This document shows, in pieces, positions 34,144 through 42,078 of a DNA stretch of 46,561 bases (position 1 is the stretch's first letter; each line of letters starts with the position of its first letter). The stretch covers positions 1-46,561 of the forward strand of contig JAYPJE010000002.1 in NCBI GenBank assembly GCA_038128265.1. Reading direction: 5' to 3'. A program made the position numbers and the translations under genes. Origin of the DNA: Gemmatimonadota bacterium. GTDB taxonomy: Bacteria > Latescibacterota > UBA2968 > UBA8231. The notes under the pieces are model-generated. The model saw nothing but the letters and a program-made list of their open reading frames with translations. It searched no databases and was not told where the DNA came from.

Positions 34144-35630
34144 GAGACAGACCCAATGTGCTGGTTATTATGAGCGATCAGCAAAAGGCCACGGCCAGCC
34201 ACCTATACGGCAATAGTTTTTGCCATACGCCATCAATGCAGCGCTTGGCCGACGACGGGGTGCTCTACGAAAATGCCATCACGCCACATCCCCTGTGCAT
34301 GCCGGCGCGCGTCTCGTTTTGGACCTCGCAATTTCCCCATATGCACGGCGGTCGGCGCAACGAGACACCGATGCCGGCTGGGGCTGAGCACGCGTGGAAC
34401 ATATGGAAAGACGCCGGATACGCGACGGGGTTGATCGGCAAGAATCACTGTTTTGTGCGCGAAGAAGATCGCCAGCTGTTTGACGTGTGGAATGCATTTA
34501 CGCACGGCGGCCAGAGCGAAGGGCCGACTACCTGGGGGATGGAGTGGTTTCGCCCGCAAGAGGGGCGCCAACGCGTGGCAGAGGCGGTGCGCGCCATGCA
34601 GCCACAGACGCCTAGCTTTGCCTATGGGTCAAACGATTTACCGCTCGAAGACCATTCCACCGGCCTGATCGCAGGGCAGACCGTGCGCTTTTTAGAAAAG
34701 TATCAGCACGAACCCTTTGCCCTATGGGTTTCTCTGCCCGACCCGCACGAACCCTGGATGGCTCCGAGACAGTATACTTCGATGTTTTCGCGCGATTCGA
34801 TCGAGCTGCCGCCGCAGCGCGACGACGAGTTCAGCGACGGAACCGCGCCCGAGCGCAACCGTGTGCTGCACAATATGCTCAGCTGGCGCGAGGACGATCT
34901 CGACGATGTCTACGGCGTTATGGGCGCCTACTACGGCATGGTGCGCTTTCTGGACGACGGGGTCGGACAAATCCTCGATGCGCTCGAGCGGTTGGAGCTG
35001 CGCGATGATACAATCGTCGTATTTTGCTCGGACCACGGCGATTTTATGGGTGAGCACGGCATGACCTGTAAGGGAGGCGTATTCTACGATTGCCTGACCC
35101 GCGTGCCCCTTATTGTTTCCTGGCCAGGCCACATACCCAGCGGCGTGCGCGACAGCAGCATGGCCAATCTGATCGATGTCGTGCCGACCTTGCTGCAGCT
35201 GCAGGGATTGGAAGTGCCGCGCGCTATGTGCGGCCAGGGGCTGCCCGCTGCCACCGATGCAACCCCGCGCGACGCGACGTTCTCCGAGTACGGCAGCGGA
35301 GGGGCCGCTTTTACGCAGGCCGATTTAGAGCGCCTGCCTAAGCCTTGGGGGCGCCGCGCGCTGATCCGTTCACTGCGCTGGCGCGAAGCGGAGGGCCGTC
35401 GCAAAATGGTGCGCACGCAGCAGTGGAAATACGTGCGCGACCCGATGGGCGATCGCGATGAATTATACGATCTCCATGCCGATCCGTGGGAGCTCTACAA
35501 CGTCGTCGACAGGGAAGAACACGCGGGCGTGCTGGCCGAAATGCGGCTGCGGTTGGCCGATTGGAGTATGGAGACAGAGGACAGTCCCCCCGTGCCGCTG
35601 CCCGAAGACGAACACTATCAGTTTGAATAA
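34140..35630 (+). CDS. Sulfatase (Cys-type)
   Basis: PNVLVIMSDQ, PLCMPAR, GKNH, DPHEP, SDHGDFMGEHG, ELYDL..DPWE. ATGA overlap with the pfkB-family gene. Confidence 0.92.
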   Translation: MRDRPNVLVIMSDQQKATASHLYGNSFCHTPSMQRLADDGVLYENAITPHPLCMPARVSFWTSQFPHMHGGRRNETPMPAGAEHAWNIWKDAGYATGLIGKNHCFVREEDRQLFDVWNAFTHGGQSEGPTTWGMEWFRPQEGRQRVAEAVRAMQPQTPSFAYGSNDLPLEDHSTGLIAGQTVRFLEKYQHEPFALWVSLPDPHEPWMAPRQYTSMFSRDSIELPPQRDDEFSDGTAPERNRVLHNMLSWREDDLDDVYGVMGAYYGMVRFLDDGVGQILDALERLELRDDTIVVFCSDHGDFMGEHGMTCKGGVFYDCLTRVPLIVSWPGHIPSGVRDSSMANLIDVVPTLLQLQGLEVPRAMCGQGLPAATDATPRDATFSEYGSGGAAFTQADLERLPKPWGRRALIRSLRWREAEGRRKMVRTQQWKYVRDPMGDRDELYDLHADPWELYNVVDREEHAGVLAEMRLRLADWSMETEDSPPVPLPEDEHYQFE

Positions 35631-35689
35631 AAGACGATTAGGGGGCGCGATGCGCAGTGCGCCGAATCTACCTATGAGGAGAGAGCTGT

Positions 35690-36268
35690 ATGAGCAATCC
35701 GATTATCATGATTCTCGGTTGGCGCTCCGGCACGTCCAGCCTGACTAAAAAGCTCTACGAAGAGGGCTTTCCGATTACCCCACCGTTGGATATGCGTCCG
35801 ATGGAGGGACACCAGCCGGAAGGTCACTACGAAAACCAACAGGTTTACCAGATTAACGAAGCGCTGCTCAAGCACTTTCAAATGTCGGTTTTTCAACCGG
35901 GCTTGCTGCCTTTTGTGAACGCCGACGTGGTGGAAAAGTGGCTACTTGACCATCCCGAACCCGTTATTATCAAAGACCCGCGTCTGGCCTTTACGTGGTC
36001 GGTGTGGACTTCTTCAACGCAGCGCCCGTGCATATTTGTGTGGACGGACCGCGAGACGACATCTCAGGTTGCTTCTATCGTGCGCTGGTATAAGGTGCCC
36101 GAGGGAGCGGCCCAGGCCTGCGTGCGCATGCACGACCTCTGTGCGCGCCTGGCCTGTAAGGAGTATCGCTCGTTAATACTCGATTTGCTCGACCCCGAGC
36201 GCGCCGATAAGGCCATGGCCTTTATCGCAGAGTTTGTTCCGCCCGGCCAGCGCCCACCGGCTGAGTAG
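35690..36268 (+). CDS. Sulfotransferase-like P-loop protein
   Basis: G.RSGTS.L PAPS-binding-like loop, P.GHYE, IKDPR. GAGGAG RBS. Confidence 0.7.
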   Translation: MSNPIIMILGWRSGTSSLTKKLYEEGFPITPPLDMRPMEGHQPEGHYENQQVYQINEALLKHFQMSVFQPGLLPFVNADVVEKWLLDHPEPVIIKDPRLAFTWSVWTSSTQRPCIFVWTDRETTSQVASIVRWYKVPEGAAQACVRMHDLCARLACKEYRSLILDLLDPERADKAMAFIAEFVPPGQRPPAE

Positions 36269-36323
36269 GTTGAGGCCGCCGTGCGCCTGCTGTTTTCTGC
36301 GCGGTTCTACCGCGTAAAAGGGC

Positions 36324-36353
36324 TTGACATGCTCGCCGTCCAGCCGATACCTT
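36324..36353 (+). promoter_or_regulatory. sigma70-type promoter of the thrS leader
   Basis: TTGACA-N18-TACCTT. Confidence 0.6.
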
Positions 36354-36390
36354 TGAACAGGCTGTCAACGTTATTTTGAGGTGTATTCAG

Positions 36391-36525
36391 ATGTCTCTAC
36401 GAGTTTCGGTCGTGTCTGTCCAAGTGCGCGCTGTCTATGCCTTTGCGGCCGCTGAAACGTCTGCACTTACGGCGACCGCTGCGTCGACTACGCGCGCCCA
36501 TAGGGCGGTGGAGCATCCGGTTTAA
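36391..36525 (+). CDS. Thr-rich leader peptide, 44 aa (MSLRVSVVSVQVRAVYAFAAAETSALTATAASTTRAHRAVEHPV)
   Basis: GAGGTG RBS 7 nt before the ATG. All 5 Thr codons cluster in codons 23-34. The stop lies 23 nt before a terminator upstream of thrS. Confidence 0.8.
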   Translation: MSLRVSVVSVQVRAVYAFAAAETSALTATAASTTRAHRAVEHPV

Positions 36526-36548
36526 ACCGAATCGATCGAGTGCTAATT

Positions 36549-36582
36549 ACCCACTGCCGCACTGCGGGCAGTGGGTTTTTTC
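36549..36582 (+). terminator. Attenuator terminator in the thrS leader
   Basis: ACCCACTGCC...GGCAGTGGGT 10-bp stem plus T7. Its 5' arm can alternatively pair with GGCGGTGG at 36504-36511. Confidence 0.9.
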
Positions 36583-36603
36583 ATGTCTGCTGAGGAGAGC
36601 ATC

Positions 36604-38595
36604 ATGCTGATTAGAGTGCCCGCAGGGGAGGTCATAGAACACGAGGGTGGAGGTGCGCTAAAAGACATCCTCGTCGAAAGGGATAAGGGCTTATTAAAGG
36701 AGTATATCGCCGCTAAAATGGGCGGCGAACGCGTTGACTTTCACACCCAGCTAGCGGCCGATGCCGAGGTAGAGTTAATCGCGTGGGACGATCCAGAAGC
36801 GGCATGGATCTATCGCCACAGCCTCTCGCACGTGCTGGCTCAGGCCGTTCTGCGGCTCTTTCCGGATGCAAAGCTGGCGATTGGGCCGGCGATTGAAGAT
36901 GGTTTCTACTACGATTTTGATGTCGAACAGCCTTTTACGCCGGAAGACCTAACCCAAATCGAAAGGGAGATGAAGCGGGTCATAAAGCAGAACCACAAAT
37001 TTGAGCGCGTAGACGTATCGCGCGCAGACGCTGTGGAAATGATCGCCGGAGCACCCTATAAAATGGAGATCCTCCAGGATCTCGAAGATGGTCAGCAGCT
37101 GTCCTTCTATAGGGACGGCGAATTTGTCGACCTGTGTCGAGGGCCGCACATGCTGGGCACGGGGCAGGTTAAGCACTTTAAACTGCTCTCGGTGGCCGGA
37201 GCCTACTGGCGCGGCGACGAGAAGCGCAAGATGCTGCAGCGCATCTACGGCACGGCGTTTGCAACGCGTGAGGCGCTCGACGCGCACGTGAAGATGTTGG
37301 AGGAAGCCAAAAAGCGCGACCATCGGGTATTGGGCCGGCAGCTGCGCCTCTTTCACATCGATGAGGAAGTGGGGCAGGGACTGATTCTATGGACGCCCAA
37401 CGGAGCCGTCGTGCGCAACGAATTGCAAACCTTCATATCGGCCGAGCTGCGTCGACAGGGCTATAGCCAGGTGTTTACACCCCATATTGGCAAGCTCGAC
37501 CTCTACCGCACGAGCGGCCACTTCCCCTACTACCAGGAGAGCCAGTACCCGCCGCTGATCGACCACGACCACATGCAGGGTCTGGCTGACGAGGGCTGTT
37601 CCTGCGGCGAGCTATCCAACCAAATGCGCGCGGGCGATATCGACGGCTATCTGCTCAAACCGATGAACTGTCCGCACCACATCAAGATTTTCGCATCGCA
37701 GATGCACAGTTATCGCGACCTGCCGGTGCGCCTGGCCGAGTTTGGTACGGTCTACCGCTGGGAGCAGTCGGGCGAATTGGGGGGCATGACGCGCGTGCGC
37801 GGCTTTACCCAAGACGATGCGCATCTGTTTTGCACCGAAGATCAGGTGGCCGGCGAACTGCTCGGTTGCTTAGAGCTGGTAAAAATCATCTTTGGCACGC
37901 TCGGCATGGAGGACTACCGCGTGCGCGTCGGGCTGCGCGATCCCGATAGCAGCAAGTACGTCGGCGATCCGGCCAAGTGGGACCGGGCTGAGGAAGCCTG
38001 CCGGCAGGCGGCCCAAAGTCTGGGCGTCGCCTTCAGTGAAGAAGCCGGTGAAGCCGCTTTTTACGGTCCCAAAATCGACTTTGTCGTCAAAGACGTCGTT
38101 GGGCGCGAATGGCAGCTCGGCACGGTGCAGGTCGACTACAACCTGCCCGAGCGCTTTGATTTGCAATACGTCGATGCCGAGGGCAAGGCGCAGCGCCCGG
38201 TGATGATTCACCGCGCGCCCTTTGGTTCGATGGAGCGCTTTGTCGGCGTGCTGATAGAGCACTTTGCCGGTGCGTTCCCCGTGTGGCTAGCGCCGGTGCA
38301 GGCAGTGGTGTTGCCGATCGCCGAACGCCACGCCGAATATGCCGAAGGAGTCTACCAGCAGCTGCGCGCTGCCGGGCTGCGCGTCGAACTCGATGCGGCT
38401 AACGAAACCCTCAACAAGCGCATTCGCCAGGCGCAGACGCGCAAGGTGCCCTACATGTTTATCGCCGGTGACCGCGAAGTGGAAGAGGGGCAGGTTTCCG
38501 TGCGCCTGCGTTCAGGGGACAATCTCGATCCGCTCAGTGCGGCACAGGCCGTTGAACTGCTGCGCGACAAGGTGGCCGAAAAGGCGCTTCTCTAG
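36604..38595 (+). CDS. thrS: Threonine--tRNA ligase
   Basis: RHSLSH editing motif, DLCRGPH, KPMNCP, RVRGFTQDDAH, AFYGPKID, IHRA. GAGGAG RBS supports the start at 36604. Confidence 0.98.
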   Translation: MLIRVPAGEVIEHEGGGALKDILVERDKGLLKEYIAAKMGGERVDFHTQLAADAEVELIAWDDPEAAWIYRHSLSHVLAQAVLRLFPDAKLAIGPAIEDGFYYDFDVEQPFTPEDLTQIEREMKRVIKQNHKFERVDVSRADAVEMIAGAPYKMEILQDLEDGQQLSFYRDGEFVDLCRGPHMLGTGQVKHFKLLSVAGAYWRGDEKRKMLQRIYGTAFATREALDAHVKMLEEAKKRDHRVLGRQLRLFHIDEEVGQGLILWTPNGAVVRNELQTFISAELRRQGYSQVFTPHIGKLDLYRTSGHFPYYQESQYPPLIDHDHMQGLADEGCSCGELSNQMRAGDIDGYLLKPMNCPHHIKIFASQMHSYRDLPVRLAEFGTVYRWEQSGELGGMTRVRGFTQDDAHLFCTEDQVAGELLGCLELVKIIFGTLGMEDYRVRVGLRDPDSSKYVGDPAKWDRAEEACRQAAQSLGVAFSEEAGEAAFYGPKIDFVVKDVVGREWQLGTVQVDYNLPERFDLQYVDAEGKAQRPVMIHRAPFGSMERFVGVLIEHFAGAFPVWLAPVQAVVLPIAERHAEYAEGVYQQLRAAGLRVELDAANETLNKRIRQAQTRKVPYMFIAGDREVEEGQVSVRLRSGDNLDPLSAAQAVELLRDKVAEKALL

Positions 38596-40183: not shown

Positions 40184-40308
40184 GAGGGGACGACGTTGAA
40201 AGGGCAAAGGCGATAGGCTAATTTAAACAGACCTGCTCGGTTCGTTGTAGCCCAGTAGAGCGGGACCTTGCCTAAGCACATACGGGATTTTTTACGGAGA
40301 TATCTTCA

Positions 40309-42078
40309 ATGAGAATGAGTCAACTGTTTAGCACGACGCTGCGCGAAATCAGCGCCGACGCCGAAGTCGCTAGCCATCAGCTGCTGCTGCGCGCCGGTTA
40401 TATACGCCAGCTAGCCAGCGGAATTTTTAGCTATTTGCCGCTGGCGCAGCGCGCCCTGGGAAAGATCGAACACATTATTCGCGACGAGATGGATGCAATT
40501 GGCGGACAGGAGATCACTATGCCGGTCGTGCATCCTGCTGAAATATGGCAGCGCACGGGGCGCTACTACGCCATCGGCAGCGAGATGAGCCGATTTAAGG
40601 ACAAGAACGAGCGCGATATGGTGCTGGCCATGACGCACGAGGAAGTAGTTGCCGATCTAGTCAGCCGAGAGATCAAGAGCTATCGGCAGCTGCCCCAGCT
40701 CGTCTATCAACTGCAGACCAAGTGGCGCGACGATCCGCGGCCGCGCTCAGGGCTAATTCGCGTGCGCGAGTTCACGATGAAGGACAGCTACAGTCTTGAC
40801 GCAGACTGGGAGGGGCTGGAAAAACAGTACCGCGCCCACTACCAGGCCTATTTCAATATCTTTCGCCGCTGCGGCATTGACGCCATTGCCGTGGCCTCCG
40901 ATACGGGTATGATGGGCGGCAAAGTTGCGCATGAATACATGTATTTGACGCCGATTGGCGAGGACACGCTGCTGCTGTGCGATGGCTGCGGTTATTCGGC
41001 CAATCGGCAGATTGCCACCTTTAAGCGTGCGGCCGTTGCGGCCGAAGACGCGCTGGATATGGAAAAGGTCGCCACGCCCAATGCCGAAACAATCGAAGAG
41101 CTGGCCCAGTTCCTCGATATCGAGGCGAGCCGCACGGCCAAAGCCGTTTTTATGATGGCTACCGTAGGCGAGGGCGAAGAGCAAAAAGACCAGTTTGTGC
41201 TGGCGGTGATTCGCGGCGATATGGAGGTCAACGAAACCAAGCTGGCCAATGCGGTCGGCGCGCGCGAGATGTGGCCGGCCAATGCCGAGGAAATCGCCTC
41301 CGTAGGCGCGGTGCCCGGCTATGGCTCGCCGCTGGGCGTGCAGGGGGCATTGGTGGTTGTCGACGCGTCCATCGCCGATTCGCCAAATCTGGTCGCTGGC
41401 GCCAACGAGGGGGGCTATCACGTGCGCAATGTCAACTGCGGTCGCGACTATACACCGGATATAACGACGGATATTGCTGCGGCGGGGGAGGGGGATGGCT
41501 GTCCCCGCTGTGGACAGGCGATGCGCACGTCGCGCGGTGTAGAAGTTGGCAATATTTTCCAGCTCGGCACCAAGTATACCGAGGCGCTGGGCGGTGAGTT
41601 TCTCGATGCCAACGGCAAGTCTCAGCCGGTGATTATGGGTTCCTATGGAATTGGCGTCGGCCGTCTGCTGGCCTGCGTGGCAGAAGAGCACCACGACGAT
41701 GGTGGACTGATATGGCCGATATCTGTCGCGCCCTTTGGGGTGATGATCACGCTGCTGGCCAAGGGCGAAGGGGAAGCGCAGACGGTAGCGGAGAAGATCT
41801 ATGCGGATCTGAATGCGCGTGGCTTGGAAGTGCTGCTAGACGATCGGCGCGAAAATCCCGGCGTCAAATTTAACGACGCTGATCTGCTGGGCATACCCGT
41901 GCGTTTAACGGTGGGCGACCGCGGGCTGAAAAACGGCGTTGTAGAATTCAAACTACGCGGCGAAAGCGAACGCAGTGAAGTGGCTGTTGAAGCGGCTGTC
42001 GAGCACACCGTTGAAGCCGTTCGGCAATTGGAAGCCGAACTAGCGCAGCGCGTTGTCGAGGTAGAATACAAGGAGTAA
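40309..42078 (+). CDS. proS: Proline--tRNA ligase (bacterial type with editing insertion)
   Basis: SHQLLLRAG, THEE, RDDPRPR.GLIRVREF.MKD.YS, EVGNIFQLGTKY, MGSYGIGVGR, GVKFNDADLLG. Confidence 0.98.
   Translation: MRMSQLFSTTLREISADAEVASHQLLLRAGYIRQLASGIFSYLPLAQRALGKIEHIIRDEMDAIGGQEITMPVVHPAEIWQRTGRYYAIGSEMSRFKDKNERDMVLAMTHEEVVADLVSREIKSYRQLPQLVYQLQTKWRDDPRPRSGLIRVREFTMKDSYSLDADWEGLEKQYRAHYQAYFNIFRRCGIDAIAVASDTGMMGGKVAHEYMYLTPIGEDTLLLCDGCGYSANRQIATFKRAAVAAEDALDMEKVATPNAETIEELAQFLDIEASRTAKAVFMMATVGEGEEQKDQFVLAVIRGDMEVNETKLANAVGAREMWPANAEEIASVGAVPGYGSPLGVQGALVVVDASIADSPNLVAGANEGGYHVRNVNCGRDYTPDITTDIAAAGEGDGCPRCGQAMRTSRGVEVGNIFQLGTKYTEALGGEFLDANGKSQPVIMGSYGIGVGRLLACVAEEHHDDGGLIWPISVAPFGVMITLLAKGEGEAQTVAEKIYADLNARGLEVLLDDRRENPGVKFNDADLLGIPVRLTVGDRGLKNGVVEFKLRGESERSEVAVEAAVEHTVEAVRQLEAELAQRVVEVEYKE

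Follow-up and report, generated by a model that had tools for sequence, protein, structure and literature searches.

We analyzed the region upstream of thrS, the gene for threonine--tRNA ligase (ThrRS), in a stretch of 46,561 nucleotides (nt) from a Gemmatimonadota bacterium of the GTDB phylum Latescibacterota (assembly GCA_038128265.1, contig JAYPJE010000002.1). This whole stretch is called the window; coordinates refer to it, and all features of the thrS leader lie on its + strand. An original prediction, made from the sequence alone, had placed a threonine-sensing leader-peptide attenuator in front of thrS, and it is this candidate element that is described here. The gene itself occupies 36604–38595 and encodes a protein of 663 amino acids that matched the NCBIfam model TIGR00418 with 705.8 bits against a cut-off of 383.65. 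Its ATG lies at 36604, one position before the start at 36605 that had been given originally, and is preceded by a Shine-Dalgarno sequence, GAGGAG (36592–36597), that is conserved in relatives. An in-frame ATG at 36583 was rejected as a start codon; it is not conserved, and in a related locus (L005) the frame that it opens meets a TAG.

The leader begins with a putative sigma-70-type promoter (36324–36353), made up of TTGACA at 36324–36329 and TACCTT at 36348–36353 with a spacer of 18 nt. The motif TTGACA-N17/18-(G)ATACNTT is also found upstream of thrS leaders in relatives; a scan for consensus promoters missed the promoter of the thrS leader, returning 0 promoter-like sites. An upstream open reading frame (uORF; 36391–36525) of 44 codons plus TAA follows, its ATG at 36391 lying 7 nt behind the Shine-Dalgarno sequence GAGGTG (36378–36383). 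We propose that its product, MSLRVSVVSVQVRAVYAFAAAETSALTATAASTTRAHRAVEHPV, is a thrS leader peptide. Five Thr codons (ACG 36457, ACG 36469, ACC 36475, ACT 36487 and ACG 36490) make up the putative Thr sensor (36457–36492); they are codons 23, 27, 29, 33 and 34 of the uORF and so fall within 12 codons. Beyond them lies segment 2 (36503–36516), the 5' strand of a predicted antiterminator, which consists of GGGCGGTGG (36503–36511) and AGCAT (36512–36516). The stretch GGGCGGTGG imitates the 3' arm of the terminator, and within it GGCGGTGG (36504–36511) is complementary to the terminator 5' arm. That 5' arm is segment 3 (36549–36558; ACCCACTGCC), which is common to the antiterminator and the terminator; the part of it paired by segment 2 is CCACTGCC (36551–36558), and GTGCT at 36540–36544 is the partner with which AGCAT extends the 2:3 helix. 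Segment 4 (36567–36582; GGCAGTGGGT) contains the 3' arm of the terminator and its T6 tract. The terminator stem (36549–36576) has 10 pairs, 7 of them G-C, and the hairpin lies 280 nt past the stop codon of the upstream gene and 3' of the conserved promoter. When the sequence was re-read, the promoter, GAGGTG, the 44-codon uORF, its five Thr codons, the terminator, and the pairing elements ACCGCT (36475–36480), GGCGGTGG, CCACTGCC, AGCAT and GTGCT were all found where the original prediction had located them.

Predicted alternative folds of the leader

The predicted folds of the leader support two competing hairpins. When the nascent RNA was folded up to the terminator loop, the terminator 5' arm (36551–36558) was paired with segment 2 at a probability of approximately 0.99, which bears out the antiterminator as originally drawn. 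The antiterminator hairpin (36500–36560) has a calculated free energy of -22.4 kcal/mol as compared to -20.4 kcal/mol for the terminator, and the 2:3 duplex of the window, at -15.2 kcal/mol, was matched by 0 of 200 shuffles. For the loci L001, L002, L005 and L006, too, the nascent RNA has the 2:3 pairing as its minimum-energy fold. We also examined the folds under masks that represent a ribosome footprint. With a 30-nt mask at Thr codon 23, 27, 33 or 34, between 7 and 8 of the 8 pairs of the 2:3 helix formed, and with a mask over the uORF stop codon (-15 to +14 nt) the terminator folded; the original expectation for such folds held for the stop codon and for four of the five Thr codons, and failed at codon 29, for which another minimum-energy fold was obtained. 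As long as segment 3 has not emerged, segment 2 is divided between a local stem of 4–5 base pairs (36495/96–99) and bases near the start of the uORF, with probabilities of approximately 0.45–0.5 for each.

The geometry of the leader is in keeping with these folds. The distance from the end of segment 2 to the uORF TAA (36523–36525) is 7–12 nt in the window, so that a ribosome terminating there would be expected to cover segment 2. In relatives the uORF stop codon lies 2–12 nt past segment 2 or directly before it, and in most leaders 25–36 nt separate it from the conserved CC core that follows in the 5' arm of the terminator. No conserved protector stem was found in the leaders of relatives. 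As modelled, the leader looks like a two-state attenuator, in which the 2:3 helix would be the default and the 3:4 helix would form only if a ribosome at the stop codon covers segment 2. Because there is no convincing protector stem, untranslated leaders would probably read through.

Two bulk statistics showed nothing unusual. The minimum free energy of the whole leader is no better than that of shuffles (z = -0.39), and the number of terminator-like sites in a 4-kb region does not exceed that of shuffles (4 found, 3.9 expected). Because the number of sites is not raised, it is by its strength, its place and its conservation that the terminator counts.

Conservation of the Thr codons and of the helices

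To describe the leader in relatives, we label genomes G (G000 being the genome analyzed here), loci L, genera g, families f and contigs C. The gene thrS was located in 40 of 41 relatives; within the GTDB family of this genome, which comprises 76 genomes, it was detected in 75, and 450 nt upstream of the gene were read in all 75. A terminator, defined as a hairpin of -9 kcal/mol or lower plus a T-run within 170 nt of thrS, is present in 69 of the 75. In one of the six genomes without a called terminator (L011), inspection by eye shows a long hairpin whose U-tract is imperfect. Thr content was measured in a frame-free manner, as the maximum number of Thr codons per 12-codon window in any open reading frame that ends 0–90 nt before the terminator. 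This statistic replaced an automatic caller of segment 2 and uORFs, which misplaced segment 2 or the terminator in some leaders (for example L003, L028, L147, L158 and L173).

By this measure the 5 Thr per 12 codons of the window leader were matched by 0 of 100 dinucleotide shuffles. Across the family, whose surveyed genomes are kin and whose leader counts are thus not independent, at least 5 Thr per 12 codons are found in 45 of the 69 leaders as compared to 1.3% of 6,900 shuffled leaders, and at least 6 in 38 of the 69 as compared to 0.2%. In 46 of the 69, no residue outnumbers Thr. A member with at least 5 Thr per 12 codons occurs in 7 of 16 genera, and one with at least 4 in 9 of 16. Orthologous uORFs of 24–51 codons were defined by hand at 16 loci, and more are present in further genera; a Shine-Dalgarno sequence of the GGAG/GAGG type was seen in 12 of the 16 when the 15 nt before each start were read by eye.

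The Thr clusters are especially clear in genus g14, for which MISAMLTVASAHSLSGLPSGPTATTTTTTTTTTMCAG is an example of the leader peptide; here CGACGG comes directly after the TAG stop codon and pairs with the 5' arm of the terminator. The largest cluster in this genus contains 3–12 Thr codons and changes in length by whole codons, and it is encoded by 24 distinct DNA strings in 31 species (ACT 85, ACC 68, ACG 60, ACA 7). This variation, by whole codons and by synonymous change, points to selection on Thr codons that are translated. Further examples are the leader of genus g18, MSREKTTADGASRRETTTTPGTTTPVTGTRDRHPTVDPPG (from the L120 sequence, by eye), that of L010, MAFPTTTTTTRTTAAILSGAMVDY, and that of L028, in which 12 of 40 codons specify Thr. 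Genus g7 and genome G044 have no such leader element upstream of thrS, and the element is one that turns over quickly.

Helix statistics were obtained from a MAFFT alignment of 34 leaders (A4), which was not curated. In the terminator helix, 97.1% of the cells are paired, as compared to 29–54% in slid controls, and 4 pairs are changed on both sides (33 cells); its covariation score of 0.292, against 0.176 in shuffles, was reached by 0 of 500 shuffles. In the 2:3 helix, 87.4% of the cells are paired in register, as compared to 27–71% when slid, and the covariation score of 0.263, against 0.230, was reached by 16 of 500 shuffles. One compensatory pair of the 2:3 helix occurs as AU in 11, GU in 11 and GC in 9 leaders, and genus g6, with CCCATCGTCG facing GACGATGG, offers a single example of 2:3 complementarity. 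Judged from these sequences, the 3:4 helix is well supported, while for the 2:3 helix the support is its conserved complementarity, its position and individual examples, and not statistics. An alignment of relatives had been put forward originally as a means of checking the element: it yielded the uORF with its Thr cluster and the 3:4 covariation, gave weak covariation for 2:3, and showed no conserved 1:2 stem.

The consensus of segment 2 across the 34 leaders is TCGGCGGTGGA, and the core of the terminator 5' arm, CCCRCYGYCG, is invariant or nearly so, with a loop that varies in length and sequence. The reading frame through segment 2 differs among leaders: CGA CGG TGG is read as RRW in an ileS leader, ACG GTG GAC as TVD in the thrS leader of genus g18, and thrS leaders have either TVD or AVE at this place. 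Because the frames differ, segment 2 appears to be conserved as RNA and not as peptide. We also considered whether the Thr codons force the sequence of the stem through the chain of complementarity, and rejected this explanation, since that stem sequence also occurs with His, Ile, Met and other leaders.

The loci L015–L018 (genus g19, family f2) share a conserved thrS leader of another kind. It has a strong TTGACA/TATAAT promoter, a 12-codon open reading frame that is not Thr-rich (MSAGEIAHRTVP, by eye), and a GC hairpin with T7 that abuts the thrS ATG.

The same scaffold before other genes

Two covariance models were used to search for the element elsewhere, R1 being built from the 3' half of the thrS leaders and R2 from a mixed alignment. 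R1 matched 52 of the 76 family genomes (E ≤ 1e-3). In a sample of 151 genomes from the phylum (E ≤ 1e-4) it matched 35 of 63 in family f1, 23 of 30 in f2, 2 of 2 in f3 and 19 of 19 in f4, and 0 of 36 in the ten other families of the sample. Many of the R1 matches lie away from thrS, and R2 found 2–5 places per genome in five genomes; the two models are probably not sensitive enough to list the full regulon. The matches in the phylum sample come to more than 100 places. We fetched 34 loci that do not involve thrS, and named their downstream genes with NCBIfam, several of the names coming from N-terminal fragments whose scores fall short of the cut-off for the full-length protein. For these loci, leader peptides were read by script, or by eye where stated. 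Searches of 14 related loci returned no Rfam family at E ≤ 0.1. Four model matches were rejected as plain terminators after convergent genes (G000 C5:90439–90555, G001 C71, L208 and L210), and L217 is of the same kind.

A second candidate attenuator on the same scaffold is present in the genome analyzed here (L222; G000 C8:698–824). Its leader (C8:698–757) reads MPIRQQQRQQEPLPLSVGG, including the stretch QQQRQQ, its terminator is GCCCGCTGCCGACTCCGCGCAGCGGG-T5, and the gene that follows encodes a glutamine--tRNA ligase/YqeY fusion (NF011291, 721.6 bits), which reads ...PEPNAYMTIGNAKA... at the position of the HIGH motif. The same arrangement precedes glnS in G001 (L221). This genome is 84% complete, and its assembly is without ileS, valS and asd loci of the type found in G005, a member of the same genus.

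In G005 (L201/L219, L224 and L223), each of these three genes has two tandem leaders: ...SIIIEII... and ...ISIIIEIIAAIIAI... before ileS (Ile 7/10), ...VVVV... and MDMAFVMVVSVVDVVDVVGVV... before valS (Val 7/10), and ...KRKNNNKR... and ...TTTKKTKKDNN... before asd, rich in Thr and Lys. An asd-lysS leader in genus g13 reads ...KSKPNTKRDNNKR..., and a lysS-aspS leader in G011 reads ...DNNLLKRKNNSKR.... The aspS leaders of G009 and G082 are tandem and Asn-rich (Asn 4/10), the first copies having been read by eye. An alaS leader in G041 reads MAARAARAAVAAAAG... (Ala 8/10), a cysH leader in G024 reads ...TCSCCCT..., and in G011 the leader ...LGLLLLTGELLGL... (Leu 6/10) precedes a gene with a broken frame that, by eye, is presumably LeuRS-like. 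The aspS, alaS, lysS, leuS-like and cysH leaders are found among L202, L203, L204, L205, L207, L209, L211, L212, L215 and L218. In families f2, f3 and f4 of the same class (L189–L200), the scaffold precedes metG (f4; ...PMCMMSS...), the hisI operon (f2 and f4; ...AHTAHRHTHH..., His 5/10), ilvB (f3; two tandem leaders rich in Leu and Val, Val 5–6/10), and, with a leader rich in Thr and His, a gene for a 351-amino-acid ThrRS core without N-terminal domains (f2; L200). Most of the scaffold leaders before genes other than thrS are thus rich in the residue that matches the downstream gene.

By the sequences compared, the thrS element is best described as one member of a homologous attenuator scaffold whose sensor codons differ according to the downstream gene. 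We lean towards the broader view that the class regulates much of its complement of aminoacyl-tRNA synthetase and amino-acid biosynthesis genes through this one modular attenuator. A conserved TCGGCGGTGGA ... CCCRCYGYCG cassette would be combined with a leader codon cluster as the sole specificity element, which would have been replaced time and again (Thr, Ile, Val, Leu, Ala, Asn/Asp, Lys, Gln, Met, His and Cys), often in tandem copies. The system would then parallel the T-box regulon, with a ribosome as the reader, and would evolve as leaders are duplicated and their sensor codons swapped. The Asn-rich leaders of aspS would fit a non-discriminating AspRS that feeds tRNA-dependent synthesis of Asn.

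An attenuator of thrS taken alone belongs to a known kind; what is new is the reuse of one cassette, with exchanged sensor codons, before about a dozen types of gene. Such reuse amounts to a natural series of swap experiments on how leader-peptide attenuators gain their specificities. The covariance models provide a handle for annotating amino-acid regulons in metagenome-assembled genomes, the hint of tRNA-dependent Asn synthesis from the aspS leaders being an example, and the compact two-state design without a protector stem is amenable to testing in vitro.

The proposed mechanism, its alternatives and known systems

We estimate a probability of roughly 85% that a ribosome-mediated, leader-peptide transcription attenuator couples transcription of thrS to the supply of charged tRNA-Thr. 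A Thr-sensing attenuator is supported because the Thr-rich uORF, the antiterminator and the terminator are conserved, and because the same scaffold carries other cognate codon clusters elsewhere; these findings, with the lack of an Rfam match, favor the original interpretation over a T-box or a tRNA-mimic operator. From what is observed, namely the anatomy, the conservation, the enrichment of Thr and the alternative folds as predicted, we infer translation of the uORF, stalling, termination and a response to Thr. Transcription would start from the promoter near 36324–36353, and the 44-codon leader would be translated behind RNA polymerase. With plentiful Thr-tRNA, the ribosome would reach the TAA at 36523 and its footprint would lie on segment 2 (36503–36516); with segment 2 covered, the terminator (36549–36576 plus U6) could fold and transcription would stop before thrS. 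With scarce Thr-tRNA, the ribosome would stall at the Thr codons (36457–36492), 5' of segment 2, and the free segment 2 would pair with 36551–36558, extended by AGCAU/GUGCU, so that the terminator would not form and thrS would be transcribed.

Several observations weigh against this mechanism, and they concern both the switch and the sensor. The 1:2 stem of the original prediction (36475–36480 with 36504–36509) is absent among the predicted partners of segment 2 and has no conserved equivalent. Equilibrium folding of the full-length leader gives the terminator in every case, whether stall masks are applied or not; for this reason the switch would have to be kinetic, with the choice made co-transcriptionally, and about such a switch these folds, like the minimum free energy of the whole leader, are uninformative. 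Covariation specific to the 2:3 helix is weak, with changes on both sides in 1 of 8 pairs, and the shuffle p for the 2:3 duplex ranges from 0.005 to 0.8 among individual sequences. When the duplex energies of native and foreign 5' arms were compared among 24 representatives, taken from 70 leaders that have both the conserved motif in the 5' arm and a 3' arm to match it, the diagonal interaction was -0.35 kcal/mol (permutation p = 0.11). This is not significant; the arms resemble one another too closely, and spurious duplexes arise from GC-rich leaders. On the side of the sensor, the loci L003 and L004, from the genus of the window itself, retain the promoter, segment 2 and the terminator but have no Thr cluster, and L008 and L014 of the same genus are without the scaffold and have an unrelated AT-rich leader instead. 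The hairpin directly follows the promoter, with no uORF, in L024, L180, L181 and L183 (three g13 species and G017). No clear residue bias was seen before valS of G009, lysS of G021, hisI of G025, an ABC ATPase gene and a gene of the MFS type. A few copies of the leader may be constitutive or regulated in some other way.

The Thr signal of the window is itself moderate, and this bears on the possibility that the leader senses general translation stress or another residue such as Ser or Ala, so that any slowing of the ribosome would raise transcription of thrS. Ala, Val and Ser are abundant in the window uORF too, with Ala and Val each reaching 6 per 12 codons elsewhere in the same uORF, as compared to 5 for Thr; a conserved S-A-P-S-T stretch lies beside the Thr codons in several genera, and 7 of the 16 genera have no more than 3 Thr per 12 codons. 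Against this, it is Thr that is enriched across genera (the 45 of 69 leaders, as compared to 1.3% of shuffles), with runs of up to 12 in g14, and the residue enriched in sister leaders of this scaffold varies with the downstream gene. We therefore consider such a general sensor improbable, though the strongest of the competitors of Thr-specific attenuation.

Slightly less probable still is a site for a protein or a tRNA formed by segment 2 and the hairpin, through autoregulation by ThrRS, an antiterminator protein or a T-box-like contact, with the uORF being incidental. The stem CCCRCYGYCG is conserved to an unusual degree for a terminator, the hairpin is kept at the four loci that have no uORF, and GGUGGA of segment 2 may loosely resemble the T-box sequence. 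However, the scaffold precedes genes of at least 10 functions, which makes binding specific to ThrRS unlikely; the terminator loop varies, as noted above, and uORFs with Shine-Dalgarno sequences and cognate codon clusters are conserved. The T-box had been named at the outset as an alternative to be looked for in Rfam: a scan of 35600–37200 at E ≤ 10 found no T-box (RF00230) and no leader family (RF00506 included), only a chance snoRNA-like row, consistent with the result at E ≤ 0.1 in the related loci, and the region 5' of segment 2 is coding and variable. Least probable, and already disfavored, is the explanation that a chance open reading frame lies next to an ordinary terminator, either that of the upstream gene or a stabilizing 5' hairpin, without any switch: the regional count of terminator-like sites and the model matches that proved to be ordinary terminators after convergent genes are compatible with it, but the hairpin stands beyond the conserved promoter and 280 nt past the stop codon of the upstream gene, accompanies thrS across 16 genera, and comes with a Thr enrichment and a placement of segment 2 far above those of shuffles.

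The proposed thrS attenuator can be compared with systems of known function. A classical case of a synthetase operon attenuated through a leader peptide is pheST of E. coli, with the leader pheM. There, as here, a short leader open reading frame rich in cognate codons, together with a terminator and an antiterminator, controls the synthetase gene of that amino acid; the present element differs in serving Thr and thrS, in having no sequence similarity and no evident protector stem, and in using a scaffold common to many genes. The thrL leader of the E. coli thrABC operon (Thr_leader, RF00506) likewise uses clusters of Thr codons as the sensor and has an intrinsic terminator 3' of them, but it controls biosynthesis genes and also senses Ile, whereas the gene regulated here would be that of a synthetase and the leader gave no RF00506 match in the scan described above.

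Known controls of thrS itself are the translational operator of E. coli, which mimics the anticodon arm of tRNA-Thr, and the T-box of Bacillota. The E. coli operator is a cis-acting 5' RNA of the same gene, defined by conserved anticodon-arm-like hairpins that flank the thrS Shine-Dalgarno sequence, and represses translation through binding of ThrRS by that sequence; in the leader described here, the sole hairpin near the Shine-Dalgarno sequence is the terminator, which has a variable loop and is also found before genes other than thrS. In its functional role the T-box regulon is equivalent, in that one conserved terminator/antiterminator scaffold recurs in front of numerous synthetase and amino-acid genes, its specificity set by a small element that can be exchanged. 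Unlike in the T-box, specificity here would lie in codons read by the ribosome rather than in a specifier codon read by uncharged tRNA. The thrS leader attenuator would add a third, well-conserved route of thrS control, in a phylum without a cultured model.

Attenuation of thrS by a leader peptide is not unprecedented; the original prediction had left room for earlier predictions in other taxa. A thrL leader that has 18 codons, 2 of them for Thr, and according to its authors lacks a clear U-rich terminator has been proposed before thrS in Streptomyces lividans TK24, where RNA-seq supplied leaders of alaS, thrS, trpS and leuS (PMC8079986). Trp and Leu attenuators of trpS and leuS have been predicted in Streptomyces (PMC1262725), and His leaders have been reported before hisS paralogues in bacilli (PMC2965389). 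A survey of attenuation in amino-acid and aminoacyl-tRNA operons (Lopatovskaya et al. 2010, Mol Biol 44:128), cited in PMC4833913, may contain earlier predictions for thrS. The Streptomyces leaders resemble the present ones as cases of predicted synthetase attenuation outside Proteobacteria; they differ in that thrL bears no sequence relation to the leader of the window, and in that no common scaffold has been reported for the Streptomyces leaders. Our literature searches turned up no paper that describes this scaffold or reports leader-peptide attenuators from this phylum.

Some minor observations concern thrS and its surroundings. The proS gene (40309–42078; 589 amino acids), 1.7 kb 3' of thrS, has no leader with a uORF and a terminator in its 125-nt upstream spacer (40184–40308). 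ThrRS (36604–38592) contains 18 Thr among 663 residues (2.7%), as compared to 4.2% in the crude long open reading frames of the window, a mild depletion that would make the enzyme easier to produce under a shortage of Thr-tRNA. An unrelated, compact leader with a run of Thr codons is found approximately 180 nt upstream of thrS at L052, L055, L059, L069, L081 and L101, from marine Phycisphaerales or an uncultured bacterium. Here the Thr run is followed by GGCGGCTGG and then by a terminator of the form GCCCGGCC...GGGCG-T5, an example of the peptide being MSQKTTTTTTTTSPD (by eye). This leader appears to be an independent case of thrS being attenuated in response to Thr.

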